Notes under the pieces: generated by a model
What the model was told of the DNA's origin: nothing
What the model saw: only the letters and a program-made list of their open reading frames with translations
Databases searched by the model: none
From: a virus
Reading direction: 5' to 3' (one strand)
IMG/VR virus record: IMGVR_UViG_3300045988_108122
Span: 1 to 42,836 of that record
DNA length: 42,836 nt
Shown here: in pieces, positions 2,185-34,500 of the stretch
Layout of the letters: each line of letters starts with the position of its first letter
Numbering within the stretch: position 1 is the stretch's first letter
Made by a program: the position numbers and the translations under genes

Positions 2185-2500
2185 TTTTAAGCACCTCGAT
2201 TTCACGCTTCATATTCTGCATTTCTTTCAGCATATCTGCCATAAGTTCCGTTTGCTCCTGCATCTGCTGTTCTGGTGTTTTAGGTTGGGTAATTACTTTA
2301 AGTTCAACAAGCTTGTTATAATATTCATTACTGATTTTTTCTAACTCATCATACGCATTTTGAGTAACTCCAATCTTCTGCCTGTTCCCATAAAAATCAA
2401 CCTGAATAATATTTGTTCCATCTACAATGCAAGTCATCGTTTGTGGATATGTAGTAAGTACAGAACTGCTTGTAATTCCTAAATTCATATTGCCACTCAT
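2078..2500 (-). CDS. Hypothetical protein (140 aa) with a coiled-coil C-terminal half
   Basis: The ATG at 2500 has an ACGGAGG RBS. The last 107 nt overlap the next gene out of frame. Confidence 0.6.
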   Translation of the reverse strand: MSGNMNLGITSSSVLTTYPQTMTCIVDGTNIIQVDFYGNRQKIGVTQNAYDELEKISNEYYNKLVELKVITQPKTPEQQMQEQTELMADMLKEMQNMKREIEVLKNDQSTSCSTNAETKPAGHEPPCGSMGDGDECSEQG

Positions 2501-2595
2501 AGTCTTGCCTCCGTTCATTTATCTTAACTATATTATCCGTTAAATCAGCTCTTATAATCCGTCAACATTCCCTCATAATTCCCTAATATAGGCAT

Positions 2596-2633
2596 AAAAA
2601 ATAAGGCAGCCACAACTATTATGTGACTGCCTT
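2596..2633 (-). terminator. Intrinsic terminator (minus strand) overlapping the stop of 2619-2861
   Basis: An 11-bp stem pairs 2603-2613 with 2623-2633. Its single mismatch is C.A on the plus strand but a G.U wobble on the minus-strand RNA. A U-run follows on the minus strand. Confidence 0.6.
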
Positions 2634-2861
2634 TAATGCTCTCTTAACTGAATTATACGCCTGCTGCAGATCTCTTTCGACCGTTTGCACTGACGTATCT
2701 ATTTTCATTGCTATTTGATAGTTTTTAAGATCGTGAATAAATTTGAGTTCTATAATTTCTATTTGCCGCGGCGTTAGTTTGGCTTCTGAAATGATTGCTT
2801 CAAATTCCTTTCGTGTGGACTGCGAAAGCCAATCTCTTGCCTGCAAACGGCAAGTATCCAT
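2619..2861 (-). CDS. Small sigma-70 region-4-like / HTH transcriptional regulator (80 aa)
   Basis: LTPRQIEIIELKFIHDLKNYQIAMKIDTSVQTVERDLQQA resembles the region-4 HTH of sigma and LuxR-type proteins. Confidence 0.6.
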   Translation of the reverse strand: MDTCRLQARDWLSQSTRKEFEAIISEAKLTPRQIEIIELKFIHDLKNYQIAMKIDTSVQTVERDLQQAYNSVKRALKAVT

Positions 2862-2865
2862 ATAA

Positions 2866-3327
2866 TCACCTGCTCGCTGCTATAGCTCCTACTAATACCC
2901 CTCCTGCAAATCCCCAAAAGGCCTTCTGTCTCTGCTTTAATTCACTTCTTGACTTTTCTTGTTTTATTTGAGAGCTCAACGTCTGCAAGGATTTGTTTTG
3001 CTCTGCTATTGTTTTTTTGGAGTTCGACAATGATTCCTGCGCAAGCATTAGCTCGCTCCTTATCTTCTGATAAGATAAACGCTGCTCTTCGATTAGCTTC
3101 TTCAGCTCGTTCGAGTTCATCTGCTGCAGTTCCAACGTGTTCGATAGCCCTATCAACAGATTTTCCTGTCTGTTTATTATCGTCTGCAATTCGTTGAACT
3201 GTTCCCTGGACATCATTATTGTTTCCGGAAGTTCCTCCGCAAAACAATTCAAAGAAAATGATAAGCACAGCAATAAGGGCAAAACTAATAATAAGATACT
3301 TGCTATACCTGATTTGTTTTTCTTCAT
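2866..3327 (-). CDS. Alternative-frame ORF (frame B): signal-peptide-like N-terminus, heptad coiled coil, C-terminal Gly/Ala TM. Possibly only the 60-aa product 2866-3048 is real.
   Basis: The ATG at 3327 is 4 nt from the frame-A GTG. An internal ATG at 3048 has a perfect AAGGAG-N7 RBS. The 3' tail 2866-2941, which is unique to this frame, has coding-like G-rich first positions and encodes AFWGFAGGVLVGAIAASR. Confidence 0.35.
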   Translation of the reverse strand: MKKNKSGIASILLLVLPLLLCLSFSLNCFAEELPETIMMSREQFNELQTIINRQENLLIGLSNTLELQQMNSNELKKLIEEQRLSYQKIRSELMLAQESLSNSKKTIAEQNKSLQTLSSQIKQEKSRSELKQRQKAFWGFAGGVLVGAIAASR

Positions 3328-3331
3328 TCAC
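2942..3331 (-). CDS. N-terminal TM plus coiled-coil protein (frame A; i-spanin-like topology)
   Basis: The GTG at 3331 lies 7 nt after GAAGGG. A TTG at 3349 is also possible. There is one TM (YLIISFALIAVLIIFFELF), then a helical charged domain. The first codon position is strongly G-rich, which is typical of a true reading frame. Confidence 0.6.
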   Translation of the reverse strand: MNEEKQIRYSKYLIISFALIAVLIIFFELFCGGTSGNNNDVQGTVQRIADDNKQTGKSVDRAIEHVGTAADELERAEEANRRAAFILSEDKERANACAGIIVELQKNNSRAKQILADVELSNKTRKVKK

Positions 3332-3492
3332 TTTCTGCCCTTCTTTCAAATTAAATTCTATTTCATTATCATTAAGATAGTTCTATTTTCAATATAATCA
3401 ACCTGTGCGCCGTTTTCTATACTCCCACTTAGATTTTCTAGTGTTTTAGAGATAAAACAACGCACAGGCTAATTCTGTGGCTGGGTTTTATC

Positions 3493-3573
3493 TTACAGAT
3501 TGTAATAAGTAATGCACCCTACCAGAATCGCAAGAGCAATACCAGCCCAAATCAAAATACACTGTTTTTCCAT
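3493..3573 (-). CDS. 26-aa hydrophobic peptide with a lipobox-like LVGC
   Basis: A GGAGGTGA RBS lies 5 nt before the ATG, immediately downstream of the endolysin stop. The product is MEKQCILIWAGIALAILVGCITYYNL. Confidence 0.4.
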   Translation of the reverse strand: MEKQCILIWAGIALAILVGCITYYNL

Positions 3574-3597
3574 ATTAGTCACCTCCTTATACAATCT

Positions 3598-4143
3598 TTA
3601 CCAATTATGATGCCACCAGATAGCCTTACCGCGAATAACATCACCGCCTGGTTTCAGTTCTCCGTCGCCTGGCACATCTGGCAATTTCCACAAGTCCCAG
3701 CGTTCAAAAGTAGTTGCCGGGCCATAGTCGTCTAAGTCTGCTGCTTCTGCATGTGTCATTACGATATCGGCATTAATGTCCAATTCAAGTTCCTCACACA
3801 GTACAGCTACAACTTTCGCCATACTATCTATCTGTAACTCTGTCGGTGGCACGTTGCCAAAGTCGATATGCCCATCAGCATAGGCTACAGCATCTACACA
3901 GCACGCTAAAGCAATACCAATAGCTCTAGAATTGCGCCGCCATGTATGAGCCTTATATTCAGTTAAATCATCGGTTGTCGCCATAACAGCGCCGTCGCTG
4001 TCAATGTTTAGGTGATAGTCACTAAAAAACTGGTGATAATTACCAGCTGACCAATGTAGATAGATCTTATCAATATTACCTCTAGCCCTTGCTGCTAACT
4101 GCCGTAGCTCATCTAAAGTGATTCTTTTTGTTACTGCCCCCAT
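3598..4143 (-). CDS. Endolysin, N-acetylmuramoyl-L-alanine amidase (Amidase_2/PGRP-like), single domain
   Basis: The ATG at 4143 has an AGGAGG RBS. The motifs IYLHWSAG, HTWRRNSRAIGIAL and VMTHAEAADLD resemble T7-lysozyme-type amidases. No cell-wall-binding domain is evident. Confidence 0.8.
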   Translation of the reverse strand: MGAVTKRITLDELRQLAARARGNIDKIYLHWSAGNYHQFFSDYHLNIDSDGAVMATTDDLTEYKAHTWRRNSRAIGIALACCVDAVAYADGHIDFGNVPPTELQIDSMAKVVAVLCEELELDINADIVMTHAEAADLDDYGPATTFERWDLWKLPDVPGDGELKPGGDVIRGKAIWWHHNW

Positions 4144-4456
4144 TATTCTCTGCCTCCTGTTCAAATTTATCAGGGACACCGTCCCCGTTTTTATCTACTA
4201 AACTCGTAGCTATGAAAGTGACAAATGCAACCATAGCCGGTCCTATAACCTCTCTTATCAGTGCTAGAAGATCAGACATAACAATCTTATCCAACCACAA
4301 CCACATATACATCCACGCAGCGTAATAGGTCAGTACCAGCAAAACGACTGCAATAAAATAGCCTACAATGACAGCCATTATTTTTGGCGACATTGAGGCT
4401 ACTTTGTTTCTGGCACTCACTATTAAGTTTTTTATTTTCTCAAACATAAATATCAC
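4109..4456 (-). CDS. Holin-like membrane protein (2 TM, charged C-terminus)
   Basis: The call rests on hydrophobic segments, a charged tail and its position directly upstream of, and overlapping, the endolysin. The start is ambiguous: GTG at 4456 or ATG at 4447. Confidence 0.65.
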   Translation of the reverse strand: MIFMFEKIKNLIVSARNKVASMSPKIMAVIVGYFIAVVLLVLTYYAAWMYMWLWLDKIVMSDLLALIREVIGPAMVAFVTFIATSLVDKNGDGVPDKFEQEAENNGGSNKKNHFR

Positions 4457-4752
4457 TTATCCTTACATGAACAGTTATTACATTTGTTTTCTACCAGCAA
4501 TAACCGTTCACCAACTTCGTCAATTCTGTTATGTGCAGATTTTGCCCTCTGATCAATCTCAGCAAATTTTATTTTTAAATCTGTTGTACGTTCTTGCTCC
4601 CTATTAATAGTCTTAGCTAAAGCGTCAACAGTCTTTTGCAGGTTCTCTATCGCCGTAGACAAAGGATTTATTATCCAAATCTTAAATACAAAACCTACTA
4701 TGCCAAATAAAAAGCTAAAGATTGTTATTGAGGCCATTGCCATTTCAACCAT
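4453..4752 (-). CDS. N-terminal TM plus coiled-coil lysis-cassette protein (99 aa)
   Basis: It has a TM (ITIFSFLFGIVGFVFKIWII), a coiled coil and a Cys-rich tail (CNNCSC). Its GTGA stop/start overlap couples it to the holin gene. Confidence 0.65.
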   Translation of the reverse strand: MVEMAMASITIFSFLFGIVGFVFKIWIINPLSTAIENLQKTVDALAKTINREQERTTDLKIKFAEIDQRAKSAHNRIDEVGERLLLVENKCNNCSCKDK

Positions 4753-4763
4753 CTTTGCACCGC

Positions 4764-5357
4764 CTAATCTAATATAATAGCGTCCAAATCCTCTTTGCTT
4801 AACGCCGCCTCTACTTGTGCCTGTTTAATCCATCCTTGCTGCTTGCAAGCACCTATATGAGACGATAAATCAGCACACCAGGTATATACCTGAGTAGCGT
4901 TAAGATACTGTATTGTTTTTTCAGTTTCCCCTTCTTTATAGCCCCGGACTGGACATCCTAACGGATATTCGTTTGCAAAACGTTCTGTGCTGACATTCAG
5001 TGCAATTCCCTGCATCGTAAGCTGAGTATCTCTGTCGCTATCATACCTCACAGGGCTACCGGTGCATCGAGAAGTAAACCCGCCAGTAATTTTATCTGCT
5101 GTCCATGCGTTAACAAGTTCAAGCTTTTGGGCCTTTAACTCTTCAAATGTATATTCTTCGTTAAGCGGTGGCGTTAAAACAAGCCCTACGCCTTCTTTGA
5201 AACTAACTAAATAACCTACTTCGCAGTCTAAACCTGTTACATCAATCCAATAGGTAGACGGATCGAAAATAGTAGGTAACTGCTCCATTGTTAAATTAGT
5301 TTCATAAATATAAATTATCTTGCCGTACAATGGTTGTGCAAAACGATTTTTAGACAT
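4764..5357 (-). CDS. Tail-fibre-associated protein (DUF4376-like C-terminal region)
   Basis: It sits after the fibre genes. ELVNAWTADKITGGF...YDSDRDTQLTMQG is reminiscent of DUF4376 fibre-accessory proteins. Confidence 0.55.
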   Translation of the reverse strand: MSKNRFAQPLYGKIIYIYETNLTMEQLPTIFDPSTYWIDVTGLDCEVGYLVSFKEGVGLVLTPPLNEEYTFEELKAQKLELVNAWTADKITGGFTSRCTGSPVRYDSDRDTQLTMQGIALNVSTERFANEYPLGCPVRGYKEGETEKTIQYLNATQVYTWCADLSSHIGACKQQGWIKQAQVEAALSKEDLDAIILD

Positions 5358-29214: not shown

Positions 29215-29303
29215 TGGCGGAAGGTACAAGACTTGAACTTGTAAGCCGATTGCTCGACTGACGCCTTAGCAGGGCGCTGCGTTACCGATTACGCCAACCT
29301 TCC
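29215..29303 (-). tRNA. tRNA-Ser (anticodon GCU), CCA encoded
   Basis: I folded the cloverleaf by hand. The acceptor GGAAGGT pairs with ACCTTCC, and the anticodon loop is CTGCTAA. It has a long variable arm, a T-arm ACAAG-TTCAAGT-CTTGT and discriminator G. Confidence 0.9.
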
Positions 29304-29306
29304 GTA

Positions 29307-29398
29307 TGGCGGAGCAGGTAGGATTCGAACCCACACAGCGTATCCCTACGCCCTATCAGTTTTCAAGACTGCTCTCTTAGCCGTTTGAGTACTGCTCC
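29307..29398 (-). tRNA. tRNA-Ser (anticodon UGA), CCA encoded
   Basis: The acceptor GGAGCAG pairs with CTGCTCC, and the anticodon loop is CTTGAAA. The long variable arm has a GCGTA/TACGC stem, the T-arm is GTGGG-TTCGAAT-CCTAC, and the discriminator is G. Confidence 0.85.
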
Positions 29399-33714: not shown

Positions 33715-34500
33715 TCAAAACGGTTCTGACTTATTAGCGTTCAGCTTGTCAAAATATTCTTCGCCTAAAATCTGTAGTTCTGCCATATCTGCAGCAAGGT
33801 TATATATTTTTGCATGCTTATTATTTCCATGTGTATCGGTAACCTTAGCTCTAAATTCGGCAATAGTCCCTAAGAAACAACCACAAGACACTGTTATACC
33901 TTTGTCTTTATTTTTGAAAAATGTCGTAAAACTAAATCTACTACCAATGCGACCGATCAATAAATAGTCAGCGTTGCCGTACACCATAGCATCGCCGTAC
34001 ACCCTAGCATCGCCGCACACCCTAGCGTTGCCGCACACCCTAGCGTCGTCGCACACCTCAGCGTCGCCGCACACCTCAGCGTTGCCGCACACCCTAGCGT
34101 TGCCGCACACCCTAGCGTCGTCGCACACCTCAGCGTCGCCGCACACCTCAGCGTTGCCGCACACCCTAGCGTTGCCGTACACCTCAGCGTCGCCGCACAC
34201 CCTAGCGTCGTCGTACACCCTAGCGTTGCCGTACACCTCAGCGTCGCCGTACACCTCAGCGTTGCCGTACACCCTAGCGTTGCCGTACACCATAGCGTTG
34301 CCGTACACCTCAGCGTCGCCGTACACCCTAGCGTTGCCGTACACCCAAGCGTCGCCATCTTGCGCTAAGTTATCTTCTTTTTCCACATATCCACCAAGTT
34401 CACCAGCTTCAACACTTCCAAAGCTAATTAAAGCCTTAATCCTAAATAATTTCTTGCCCCATTGTTCTATAAACTCTGCTGTCAACCCATACTTTTTCAT
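33715..34500 (-). CDS. Hexapeptide-repeat (beta-helix-like) phage protein, 261 aa
   Basis: About 21 consecutive G(N/D)A(R/E/M)V(Y/C) hexapeptides lie between a conserved-looking N-terminal domain and a C-terminal domain (VSCGCFLGTIAEFRAKV). Confidence 0.8.
   Translation of the reverse strand: MKKYGLTAEFIEQWGKKLFRIKALISFGSVEAGELGGYVEKEDNLAQDGDAWVYGNARVYGDAEVYGNAMVYGNARVYGNAEVYGDAEVYGNARVYDDARVCGDAEVYGNARVCGNAEVCGDAEVCDDARVCGNARVCGNAEVCGDAEVCDDARVCGNARVCGDARVYGDAMVYGNADYLLIGRIGSRFSFTTFFKNKDKGITVSCGCFLGTIAEFRAKVTDTHGNNKHAKIYNLAADMAELQILGEEYFDKLNANKSEPF
33971..34348. repeat. Tandem array of 21 x 18-bp repeats, including a perfect 72-bp tandem duplication (34025-34096 = 34097-34168)
   Basis: I read the units directly, for example GCGTTGCCG(T/C)ACACC(C/A/T)(T/C)A. 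All six frames are open across the array. Confidence 0.95.

Follow-up and report, generated by a model that had tools for sequence, protein, structure and literature searches.

Two conserved overlapping genes beside the endolysin of Negativicutes phages form a candidate lipoprotein-free, spanin-like lysis module

The DNA analysed here, called the window, is the whole 42,836-nt stretch of IMG/VR virus record IMGVR_UViG_3300045988_108122 (positions 1 to 42,836; G+C content of 39%). Near one of its ends, downstream of an endolysin gene, two long open reading frames (ORFs) overlap on the same strand; we call them A and B and describe the locus that they form. The minus strand carries every gene around this locus, and B is read in the +1 frame relative to A. 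An earlier reading of the sequence alone, referred to below as the original prediction, had delimited both frames, and all of its coordinates for the locus were correct on re-check. The features of the A/B locus are as follows (lengths of products in amino acids, aa).

2942..3331, minus strand: frame A (gene A), from GTG 3331 to the stop codon 2944-2942, 129 aa
2866..3327, minus strand: frame B (gene B), from ATG 3327 to the stop codon 2868-2866, 153 aa
3325..3343, minus strand: shared initiation region, with GAAGGG at 3343-3338, GTG (A) at 3331-3329, one base, and ATG (B) at 3327-3325
2942..3327, minus strand: dual-coding overlap, 386 nt, A stop codon included
2866..2941, minus strand: B-only tail, 76 nt past A, 25 codons for a basic collar and a WGxxGGxxxG hydrophobic anchor
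2875-2922, minus strand: the WGxxGGxxxG anchor within the B-only tail, B residues 136-151
3238..3327, minus strand: signal peptide of B predicted from hydropathy, residues 1-30, ending in ...SLNCFA before EE

Frame A has an alternative start, TTG 3349, which is not accompanied by a Shine-Dalgarno sequence. Gene A has already been called by NCBI and JGI, and among 165 A homologues it appears as 'hypothetical protein C8D73_109120 [Phascolarctobacterium faecium DSM 14760]'; NCBI gives B no name.

The probability that each frame stays open, given the protein encoded by the other, was calculated by exact dynamic programming over synonymous codons weighted by the window's own codon usage. Stops occur off frame in 18 long genes of the window at a rate of 0.066 per codon in the +1 frame and 0.122 per codon in the -1 frame. 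For the window itself, the probability of A being open given the B protein was 3.4e-9 and that of B being open given the A protein was 7e-6; within the window's clade the corresponding values ranged from 2e-9 to 2e-7 and from 7e-6 to 1e-4. Both conditional probabilities were likewise small (1e-16 to 9e-4) in eight of nine deep lineages, the ninth having a value of 0.058 for A open given B. The original prediction held that double-open frames are unexpected at this base composition, and the open-frame probabilities support it: as the conditional probability of either frame staying open is low, chance is excluded as an explanation and the A/B double open frame is real.

The original prediction had further proposed to check whether both frames stay open in relatives. 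We followed them in four sets of loci: 80 IMG/VR loci together with the locus of the P. faecium type strain and that of a Selenomonadaceae metagenome-assembled genome; 80 metagenome loci; the contigs of nine deep B homologues found by profile; and 100 loci from two distant subfamilies, retrieved after a full-library profile search. In the first set A and B were open in all sequences (83/83), with 14-23 stops in the third frame. Among 161 full-length loci (94 distinct DNAs) the sole defect was a 1-nt deletion that removes the A start, on a contig with 0.75x coverage. Both frames were also open in the nine deep lineages, which show 30-45% identity to the window B and a G+C content of 0.46-0.6; there, frame A is open for 126-158 codons and begins with a transmembrane (TM) helix, the third frame having 13-17 stops. 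In the distant subfamilies the -1 frame, that of A, is open across 80-90% of B in 99/99 loci, and the A frame contains 1-3 stops near its 3' end compared with 8-23 in the +1 frame; in one of these loci, L203, a 64-nt deletion shortens B. The pair, both start codons included, is retained across ~270 related loci, with few defective copies and identity down to ~30%.

The B family is itself large and uniform in length. We collected 95 full-length B homologues of 148-154 aa with identity down to 50%, and the B profile reached 171 clusters (at 50% identity) at E<=1e-10 and 512 at E<=1e-3, nearly all of 140-175 aa. A metagenome scan for closer kin of the Selenomonadaceae locus returned Phascolarctobacterium-type loci only. 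In the GenBank phage collection, no match was found by blastn for the window region 2500-4800, nor by tblastn with three proteins or with a Veillonella-clade B, searches in which the low-complexity filter may mask coiled coils.

We then considered how the two frames begin. The window RNA reads GAAGGG-N6-GUGAAUG, and the Shine-Dalgarno-like GAAGGG would serve both the GUG of A and the AUG of B, located 4 nt apart. Adjacent A and B starts, 2-7 nt apart behind one Shine-Dalgarno sequence, are retained amid unrelated upstream sequences, in forms such as GUGUAUG after AGGAGG-N7, AUGAAUG after UAAGGAGGU, AUGUAUG and AUGCAUG, and with the AUG at -7 in one module. In the UUGUGG and GUGUGG variants the B start comes first and the A GUG lies 2 nt downstream. 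Two distant clades depart from this layout: A starts 25-45 nt upstream behind a AGGAGGUGA of its own, and the Shine-Dalgarno sequence of B falls within the A coding sequence. Two nearby starts, one Shine-Dalgarno sequence and two long out-of-frame ORFs, the hallmarks of an ambiguous shared initiation site, are all present at the locus. Because both ORFs and both starts are conserved, we infer that both would be translated from the shared site.

The original prediction had also pointed to an internal ATG of frame B at 3048, whose 60-aa tail-anchored product would be an o-spanin-like (outer-membrane spanin) partner of A, in an overlapped architecture of the P2 LysB/LysC type. The ATG and its ideal AAGGAG-N7 are indeed in the window. 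However, the Met is found in only 77/158 related loci, Thr occurring elsewhere, and it is missing in the other 81/158 (SELTSAQ, SELTKGK or similar) as well as in the deep lineages; moreover, the 60-aa product would have neither signal peptide nor lipobox. ATG 3048 was thus rejected as a conserved start, and the P2-style reading lost the product on which it was based; we hold an internal start of this kind to be very improbable. The sole element conserved everywhere is full-length B, with its start beside that of A or, in some clades, the 25-45 nt downstream.

Selection on each frame was examined by codon usage and by substitution pattern. By codon-usage log-odds (reference values of 0.30 +/- 0.10 in frame and -0.12 +/- 0.10 off frame), A scored 0.21 and B -0.04 in the overlap; the B-only tail scored 0.22 and the third frame -0.16. 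These values match an earlier remark that codon-position composition favours A in the overlap and B in the tail. A and the B tail have the codon usage of in-frame sequence, and B within the overlap has that of off-frame sequence, as an overprinted gene would; A is apparently the older frame, onto which B, with its normally coded extension, seems to have been overprinted. Substitutions were nearly flat by codon position in the overlap (for example 16, 24 and 30 at the three positions). In the B-only tail they fell mostly at the third position (2, 2 and 9 in close pairs) and 43% were synonymous compared with 23% expected, which is ordinary purifying selection. A 291-nt core contained 197 variable site-alleles, of which 32% were synonymous in B and 29% in A. 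When changes were synonymous in A, the replacements in B were more conservative than expected (-0.14 compared with -0.85, P ~0.001); when they were synonymous in B, the replacements in A were mildly more conservative (0.71 compared with 0.37, P ~0.05), and doubly synonymous changes reached 10% instead of the 2% expected.

These data bear on the view that frame A is the sole gene, as NCBI annotates P. faecium DSM 14760, B being nonfunctional or used in its tail only. The better codon usage of A in the overlap speaks for it, as do the NCBI naming of the 129-aa A and not of B, and the fact that B homologues belong to no PHROG family. Nevertheless, the probability of B being open given A is just 7e-6 to 1e-4 per lineage, and the start, signal peptide, heptads and tail of B are conserved over at least 171 clusters at 50% identity. 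In addition, purifying selection acts on the B-only tail, for which no separate conserved start exists, and B is more conserved than A. We therefore regard A as sole gene as highly unlikely.

The converse possibility is that B is the sole gene and the open frame of A is functionless. B is the longer and the more conserved of the two, and when deep pairs were aligned on B codons the identity of A (0.27) did not exceed the 0.29 of the third frame. We dropped this identity test for selection on A and used a frame-neutral nucleotide alignment with BLOSUM scores instead, in which the deep pairs gave, per site, 1.17 for B, 0.94 for A and 0.56 for the third frame, with A above the third frame in 37/39 pairs. 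The pairs in these tests are not independent, and A separates from the third frame solely by such measures of substitution quality. On the other hand, the probability of A being open given B is only 2e-9 to 2e-7 in the window's clade, the third frame has 8-23 stops, the codon usage of A is in-frame-like, the third frame shows less conservative substitutions than A does, and some clades give A a strong upstream Shine-Dalgarno sequence of its own. The A start, N-terminal TM helix and stop position also recur in distant clades, together with the motifs N.ID.V...DDNQRAR and, at the C-terminus, I..[DE][IV][DE]R[AS]N[QK] (DDNQRAR and I..[DE]IDRANQ in their core form). B as sole gene thus seems to us no more credible than A as sole gene. 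Selection acts on both proteins, a little more strictly on B, and their evolution is rapid, as is usual for helical structural proteins. Where the original prediction had at least part of each frame coding, both frames behave as real genes: by computational criteria the dual coding is established, and A and B are both genuine protein-coding genes.

Dual coding could also be read through a programmed +1 frameshift, which would produce a unimolecular A-B fusion with the TM helix of A and the C-terminal anchor of B. Database proteins that are A-to-B hybrids (P0012, P0077, P0078, P0095, P0364 and P0438) and a related locus, L203, in which a 64-nt deletion creates exactly such a fusion, fit this idea. 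Yet the hybrids switch frame at differing places and come from short assembled contigs, as assembly or indel errors would; a frameshift needs no B start, signal peptide or open first 100 codons, all of which are conserved; and no conserved slippery site was seen. We rank frameshifting as the least probable of the explanations considered. The hybrids belong to a wider group of chimeric A/B database proteins that also includes P0084, P0086, P0093, P0460, P0466 and P0489. Switching between the A and B frames at various points, these chimeras most probably reflect indel errors in short assembled contigs, and they show dual-coding loci contaminating protein databases. At L203 (~2680 of IMGVR_UViG_3300029382_000018) the deletion, defined relative to L172, truncates B and joins ~70 aa of the A N-terminus (TM and helix) in frame to ~80 aa of the B C-terminus (helix and anchor); this A::B fusion may be natural or a product of faulty assembly. 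Another variant was observed in L166, a Selenomonadaceae/Schwartzia prophage (4003-4479), in which A lacks its usual stop and is 158 codons long, reaching past the B stop and ending in an Arg-rich tail.

Protein A consists of a short basic cytoplasmic N-terminus, a TM helix at residues 13-31, a Gly/Asn linker, a periplasmic helix of ~88 residues and a basic tail, with 1-3 cysteines near the C-terminus. The TM helix has a Kyte-Doolittle maximum of 2.92 over residues 13-29 and follows K/R among the first 12 residues. AlphaFold2 (AF2) predicts helices at residues 3-31 and 41-128 with moderate pLDDT, and the heptad a/d positions are 68% hydrophobic compared with 23% elsewhere. Hydropathy and AF2 thus agree with the topology first suggested for A, that of an i-spanin (inner-membrane spanin): the N-terminal TM helix with N-in/C-out topology is retained in all lineages, and the periplasmic domain is predicted to be an alpha-helical coiled coil. 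The place of A in the lysis cassette is also that of an i-spanin gene, but an o-spanin lipoprotein gene to pair with it is missing, and A belongs to no described i-spanin sequence family. The window A matches only phrog_23980 (unknown function, 6e-5); for distant A homologues the match is phrog_18860, also of unknown function, and a single A homologue gave weak matches to Rz-like spanin PHROGs (phrog_89, 7e-6). For A and B alike, Pfam, NCBIfam and PHROGs returned sub-threshold coiled-coil noise or unknown-function families only, and Foldseek of their AF2 models against BFVD gave nothing with E < 0.8, single long helices being little informative in such a comparison.

Protein B starts with a Sec-type signal peptide (n-region with K/R, h-region, ...CFA before EE), followed by the conserved mature N-terminus EELPETITMSREQF. 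The DNA for this signal peptide overlaps that for the TM helix of A (A residues 13-31 = 3239-3295), and several exchangeable N-terminal modules exist in which hydrophobicity is retained in both frames. The AF2 model of B (pLDDT 81.7) is one continuous helix over residues 41-152 (~110 residues, pLDDT ~90), and 65% of heptad a/d positions are hydrophobic compared with 19% elsewhere. The C-terminus has a basic collar, then a segment of 13-17 residues of the type W-G-x-x-G-G-x-x-x-G, with one or two basic residues last. The topology originally drawn for B, namely a signal peptide, a coiled coil and a C-terminal anchor without a canonical lipobox, is supported by these data. The anchor being short and preceded by the basic collar, B may take more than one membrane and orientation. 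It might be held in the inner membrane as a type I anchor, so that A and B form an antiparallel bundle, or the glycine-zipper end of B might enter the outer membrane.

The original prediction had likened B to unimolecular spanins (u-spanins), and the topology bears the comparison; the defining lipoprotein feature is absent in the window's lineage. The Cys of the B signal peptide is conserved in the Phascolarctobacterium clade, preceded by N, I, V, L, Y, W or F, and a PROSITE PS51257-like pattern is found in B only in the F[VA]GSC and VATSC lineages. For the window's lineage we rejected B as a lipoprotein on the basis of two lipobox patterns. B therefore does not carry the signal peptidase II (SPase II) signal with lipobox of an o-spanin, nor does it have a short unstructured mature domain, its mature part of ~123 aa being a predicted continuous helix. 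As a u-spanin it would need an outer-membrane lipoprotein signal together with a TM domain at the C-terminus; the lipobox fails and the C-terminal segment is short. A six-frame scan of the whole window revealed no o- or u-spanin-like lipoprotein ORF.

The A/B pair lies at the distal end of a set of lysis genes. The neighbouring features of the window, in the direction of transcription, are listed below.

4453-4752, minus strand: XhlA-like gene for a TM helix plus coil, first in the lysis order of the window, upstream of the holin
4109..4447, minus strand: holin-like multi-TM gene, its 3' end overlapping the endolysin start, its position conserved in related loci
3598..4143, minus strand: endolysin gene (Amidase_2), 181 aa from ATG 4143, with matches to Pfam PF01510 (1.8e-10) and to a PHROG endolysin (1.2e-37)
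3493-3573, minus strand: 26-aa ORF MEKQCILIWAGIALAILVGCITYYNL, after a strong AAGGAGGTGA Shine-Dalgarno sequence, between endolysin and A/B
3365..3392, minus strand: putative promoter-like site TTGAAA-16-GATAAT, from a consensus scan, upstream of A/B
2619-2861, minus strand: sigma-70 region-4 / extracytoplasmic function (ECF)-like gene, 80 aa, its start 5 nt after the B stop
2633-2603, minus strand: strong intrinsic terminator after the sigma-70 region-4-like gene

The amidase endolysin that had been noticed upstream of the pair is confirmed and ends at 3598, and A/B adjoins the endolysin in nearly every locus checked, usually directly after it, which supports the original assignment of the pair to the lysis cassette. 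The endolysin partners are of six unrelated types: Amidase_2, Amidase_3, GH25, VgrG3-like lysozyme, YkuD-like and M15-like peptidase, the last assigned by sequence inspection only. The order varies in a few loci. In L166 the pair precedes an Amidase_3 gene instead of trailing it, and in L074 and L150 a 76-aa tail-anchored ORF and a 155-aa ORF separate the peptidase from the pair; the 155-aa ORF (MKKYIRTNIVEAKPMTRGEYNDYRGW..., L074 2518-2985, L150 2443-2910) has, by inspection, no relation to lysis. A/B is often the last prophage gene, beside tRNA genes, trkA or NAD synthase. The sigma-70 region-4-like gene stands beside A/B in many, not all, related phages, and is missing where A/B ends the prophage.

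Between endolysin and A/B, the 26-aa ORF is the only ORF of the window, in any frame, with both a canonical lipobox (ILVGC) and a Shine-Dalgarno sequence, and it shows 96% conservation across related loci. We rejected it as an o-spanin, its mature part being only 7 residues long. To judge from its sequence, it looks like what is left of the C-terminal TM part of a tail-anchored protein of 64-76 aa, which L074, L075 and L150 encode at this position. The 140-nt spacer between this ORF and A/B contains a weak hairpin and the promoter-like site. At the other end of the cassette, the product of 4453-4752 (99 aa, with a Cys-rich C-terminus CNNCSCKDK) gave weak matches to XhlA in Pfam and to the Rz-like spanin family phrog_739 (2.4e-5), and has the second i-spanin-like topology of the cassette.

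Near-identical loci were found in P. faecium DSM 14760, in agreement with the diderm-Firmicute host of the original prediction. Hosts were assigned from exact flanking host proteins or from record titles and comprise P. faecium, P. succinatutens, Phascolarctobacterium sp., Selenomonadaceae/Schwartzia and Veillonella; among the loci that could be assigned, all are Negativicutes, i.e. diderm Firmicutes. To our knowledge, diderm Firmicutes are devoid of Lol and of Braun's lipoprotein (Lpp), and Veillonella, Phascolarctobacterium and Selenomonas also of Pal. Negativicutes have no LolA or LolB homologues (PMC5007114).

A few observations were made away from the pair. A diversity-generating retroelement signature (bAvd and an RVT_1 reverse transcriptase) was noted in L165 (1016-2672), the contig of a related phage, just upstream of its lysis cassette. 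The window has, at 33715-34500 (minus strand), a 261-aa gene made of tandem GNARVYGDAEVY-type repeats, with other-frame ORFs of 133 aa and 184 aa on both strands; a 135-codon off-frame ORF elsewhere in the window was rejected as a second case of dual coding, being an artefact of the tandem-repeat gene. Two adjacent tRNA-Ser genes (anticodons GCT and TGA) are located within the phage genome at 29215-29398 (minus strand).

The best reading of the locus is, in our opinion, a lipoprotein-free, spanin-like lysis module. On balance we think it probable that the conserved, co-expressed, overlapped pair is a distal lysis-cassette module of Negativicutes phages, with the outer-membrane step as its likely task. 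We infer this function, and with it the expression of both proteins, their physical interaction, the final location of B and the disruption of the outer membrane. Ribosomes at a single Shine-Dalgarno sequence would choose either the GUG of A or the AUG of B, so that one mRNA segment would yield two proteins. A would sit in the inner membrane as a type II protein and extend a long helix into the periplasm; B, exported by Sec, would be a helix of ~110 residues whose end is formed by a basic collar and a short hydrophobic segment of the glycine-zipper type. Once the endolysin has removed the peptidoglycan, the A/B helical assembly would bridge or collapse the envelope and thereby disrupt the outer membrane. 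The pair would then stand in for spanins without requiring a Lol-sorted lipoprotein, in hosts devoid of LolA and LolB. A more specific proposal, which we put forward as a tentative and rather doubtful one, is that A/B represents a new lipoprotein-free spanin class of diderm Firmicutes, in which A would be anchored in the inner membrane, the B tail would engage the outer membrane like a fusion peptide or a helical tail anchor, the conserved N-terminal end of B would pair with the conserved C-terminal end of A, and the A:B ratio would be fixed by competition between the start codons.

Several points, added to the alignment results for A given above, weigh against a spanin-like module acting at the outer membrane. 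The C-terminal hydrophobic stretch of B is short (13-17 residues, Kyte-Doolittle 1.46) and comes after a strongly basic collar. The strict lipobox [LVI][ASTVI][GAS]C was never found in B, the window having SLNC followed by FA, and several clades have Ser or nothing in place of the B Cys, an AxA-type cleavage site remaining. In the window, 267 nt with the promoter-like site part the endolysin from the pair and the sigma-70 region-4-like gene follows; transcription of the pair may here be separate from that of the late lysis genes. A restriction to diderm hosts is putative, holding for the loci that could be assigned, and proteins with a TM helix and a coiled coil, such as XhlA, are also found in lysis cassettes of monoderm phages.

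The main rival is accordingly that A and B are real lysis proteins with another job, such as antiholin-like timing, XhlA-like permeabilisation of the inner membrane, or release or activation of the endolysin. Proteins of this kind do serve other lysis roles, as the XhlA-like TM-plus-coil protein upstream of the holin illustrates, B has no canonical lipobox, and simple topology rules allow both A and B to reside in the inner membrane. Against such a role, the pair occupies a spanin-typical position, adjoining the endolysin, nearly always after it and often last; separate holin genes are present; the two predicted periplasmic helices of ~13-17 nm suggest a structure that spans the envelope; and each identified host is diderm. 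A different lysis role is, in our view, unlikely overall, if still a serious contender, and we retain the spanin-like module as the preferred reading.

Veillonella, Phascolarctobacterium and Selenomonas are abundant gut and oral bacteria. Our literature search found no paper on the spanins of Negativicutes phages and no described mechanism of outer-membrane breach for phages of diderm Firmicutes such as these. A/B is a concrete candidate for that breach in diderm Firmicutes, present in hundreds of phage lineages. As an example of long dual coding it is also exceptionally clear and deep, ~125 codons being retained down to ~30% identity, and it should be useful for the study of overprinting, of partitioning at translation starts and of the constraints on two helical proteins encoded in one DNA. 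Since annotation pipelines call one gene only (A at NCBI, B elsewhere, and only A in PHROGs), half of the module is missing from most records.

Among known systems, A/B resembles lambda Rz/Rz1 and P2 LysB/LysC in being the last module of the lysis cassette in phages of diderm hosts. A shares with two-component spanins the type II inner-membrane topology, the helical periplasmic domain and the C-proximal cysteines, and, as in embedded and overlapped spanins, the second gene lies in the +1 frame and, like B, extends past the first. The second spanin gene is often missed by annotation (PMC6139136). The differences concern mostly B. O-spanins have a lipobox, are short, unstructured and proline-rich, whereas B has no canonical lipobox in most lineages, is longer than A, is predicted to be one long helix, and adds a C-terminal hydrophobic anchor to what two-component o-spanins have. 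An embedded o-spanin begins, in about 70% of cases, at 0.4-0.5 of the i-spanin length, compared with 0-0.1 of A for B, and A/B falls into no spanin sequence family.

The u-spanin gp11 of T1 is similar to B in its N-terminal export signal, C-terminal hydrophobic segment, absence of periplasmic cysteines and location at the end of the lysis cassette. However, gp11 depends on a lipoprotein signal for the outer membrane and consists mostly of beta-strands, whereas B is lipobox-free in the window's lineage and all-helical; gp11 is unimolecular, whereas B is always accompanied by its overlapping partner A. The XhlA-type lysis accessories are, like A and B, small membrane-anchored coiled-coil proteins encoded in lysis cassettes. 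Their genes are single-frame and upstream of the holin, whereas A/B is dual-coded and adjoins the endolysin, nearly always after it, and neither A nor B gave a Pfam XhlA match.

For the initiation region the closest described parallel is rnpA/rpmH of Thermus, nested genes that start at 5'-AUGGAUG-3' behind one Shine-Dalgarno sequence and form the only described bacterial case (PMC9841429, NAR 2022); in E. coli, translation can begin in two frames at AUGUG and GUGUG sites (PMC9841429). The A/B starts are likewise one base apart (GUGAAUG, AUGNAUG) or overlapping (UUGUGG, GUGUGG), and both systems have two long out-of-frame ORFs, one of them nearly nested. A/B differs in being phage-borne, with a family of hundreds of members, in that its products look like partners in one membrane machine, in that the later-starting ORF (B) is the longer and extends past A, and in that some clades have starts 25-45 nt apart, each with its own Shine-Dalgarno sequence. 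A shared or near-shared initiation site has so far been reported for that one bacterial gene pair. If the more specific proposal made above is true, A/B would be the second natural family of its kind after Thermus rnpA/rpmH, and the first whose two proteins work together in one machine.

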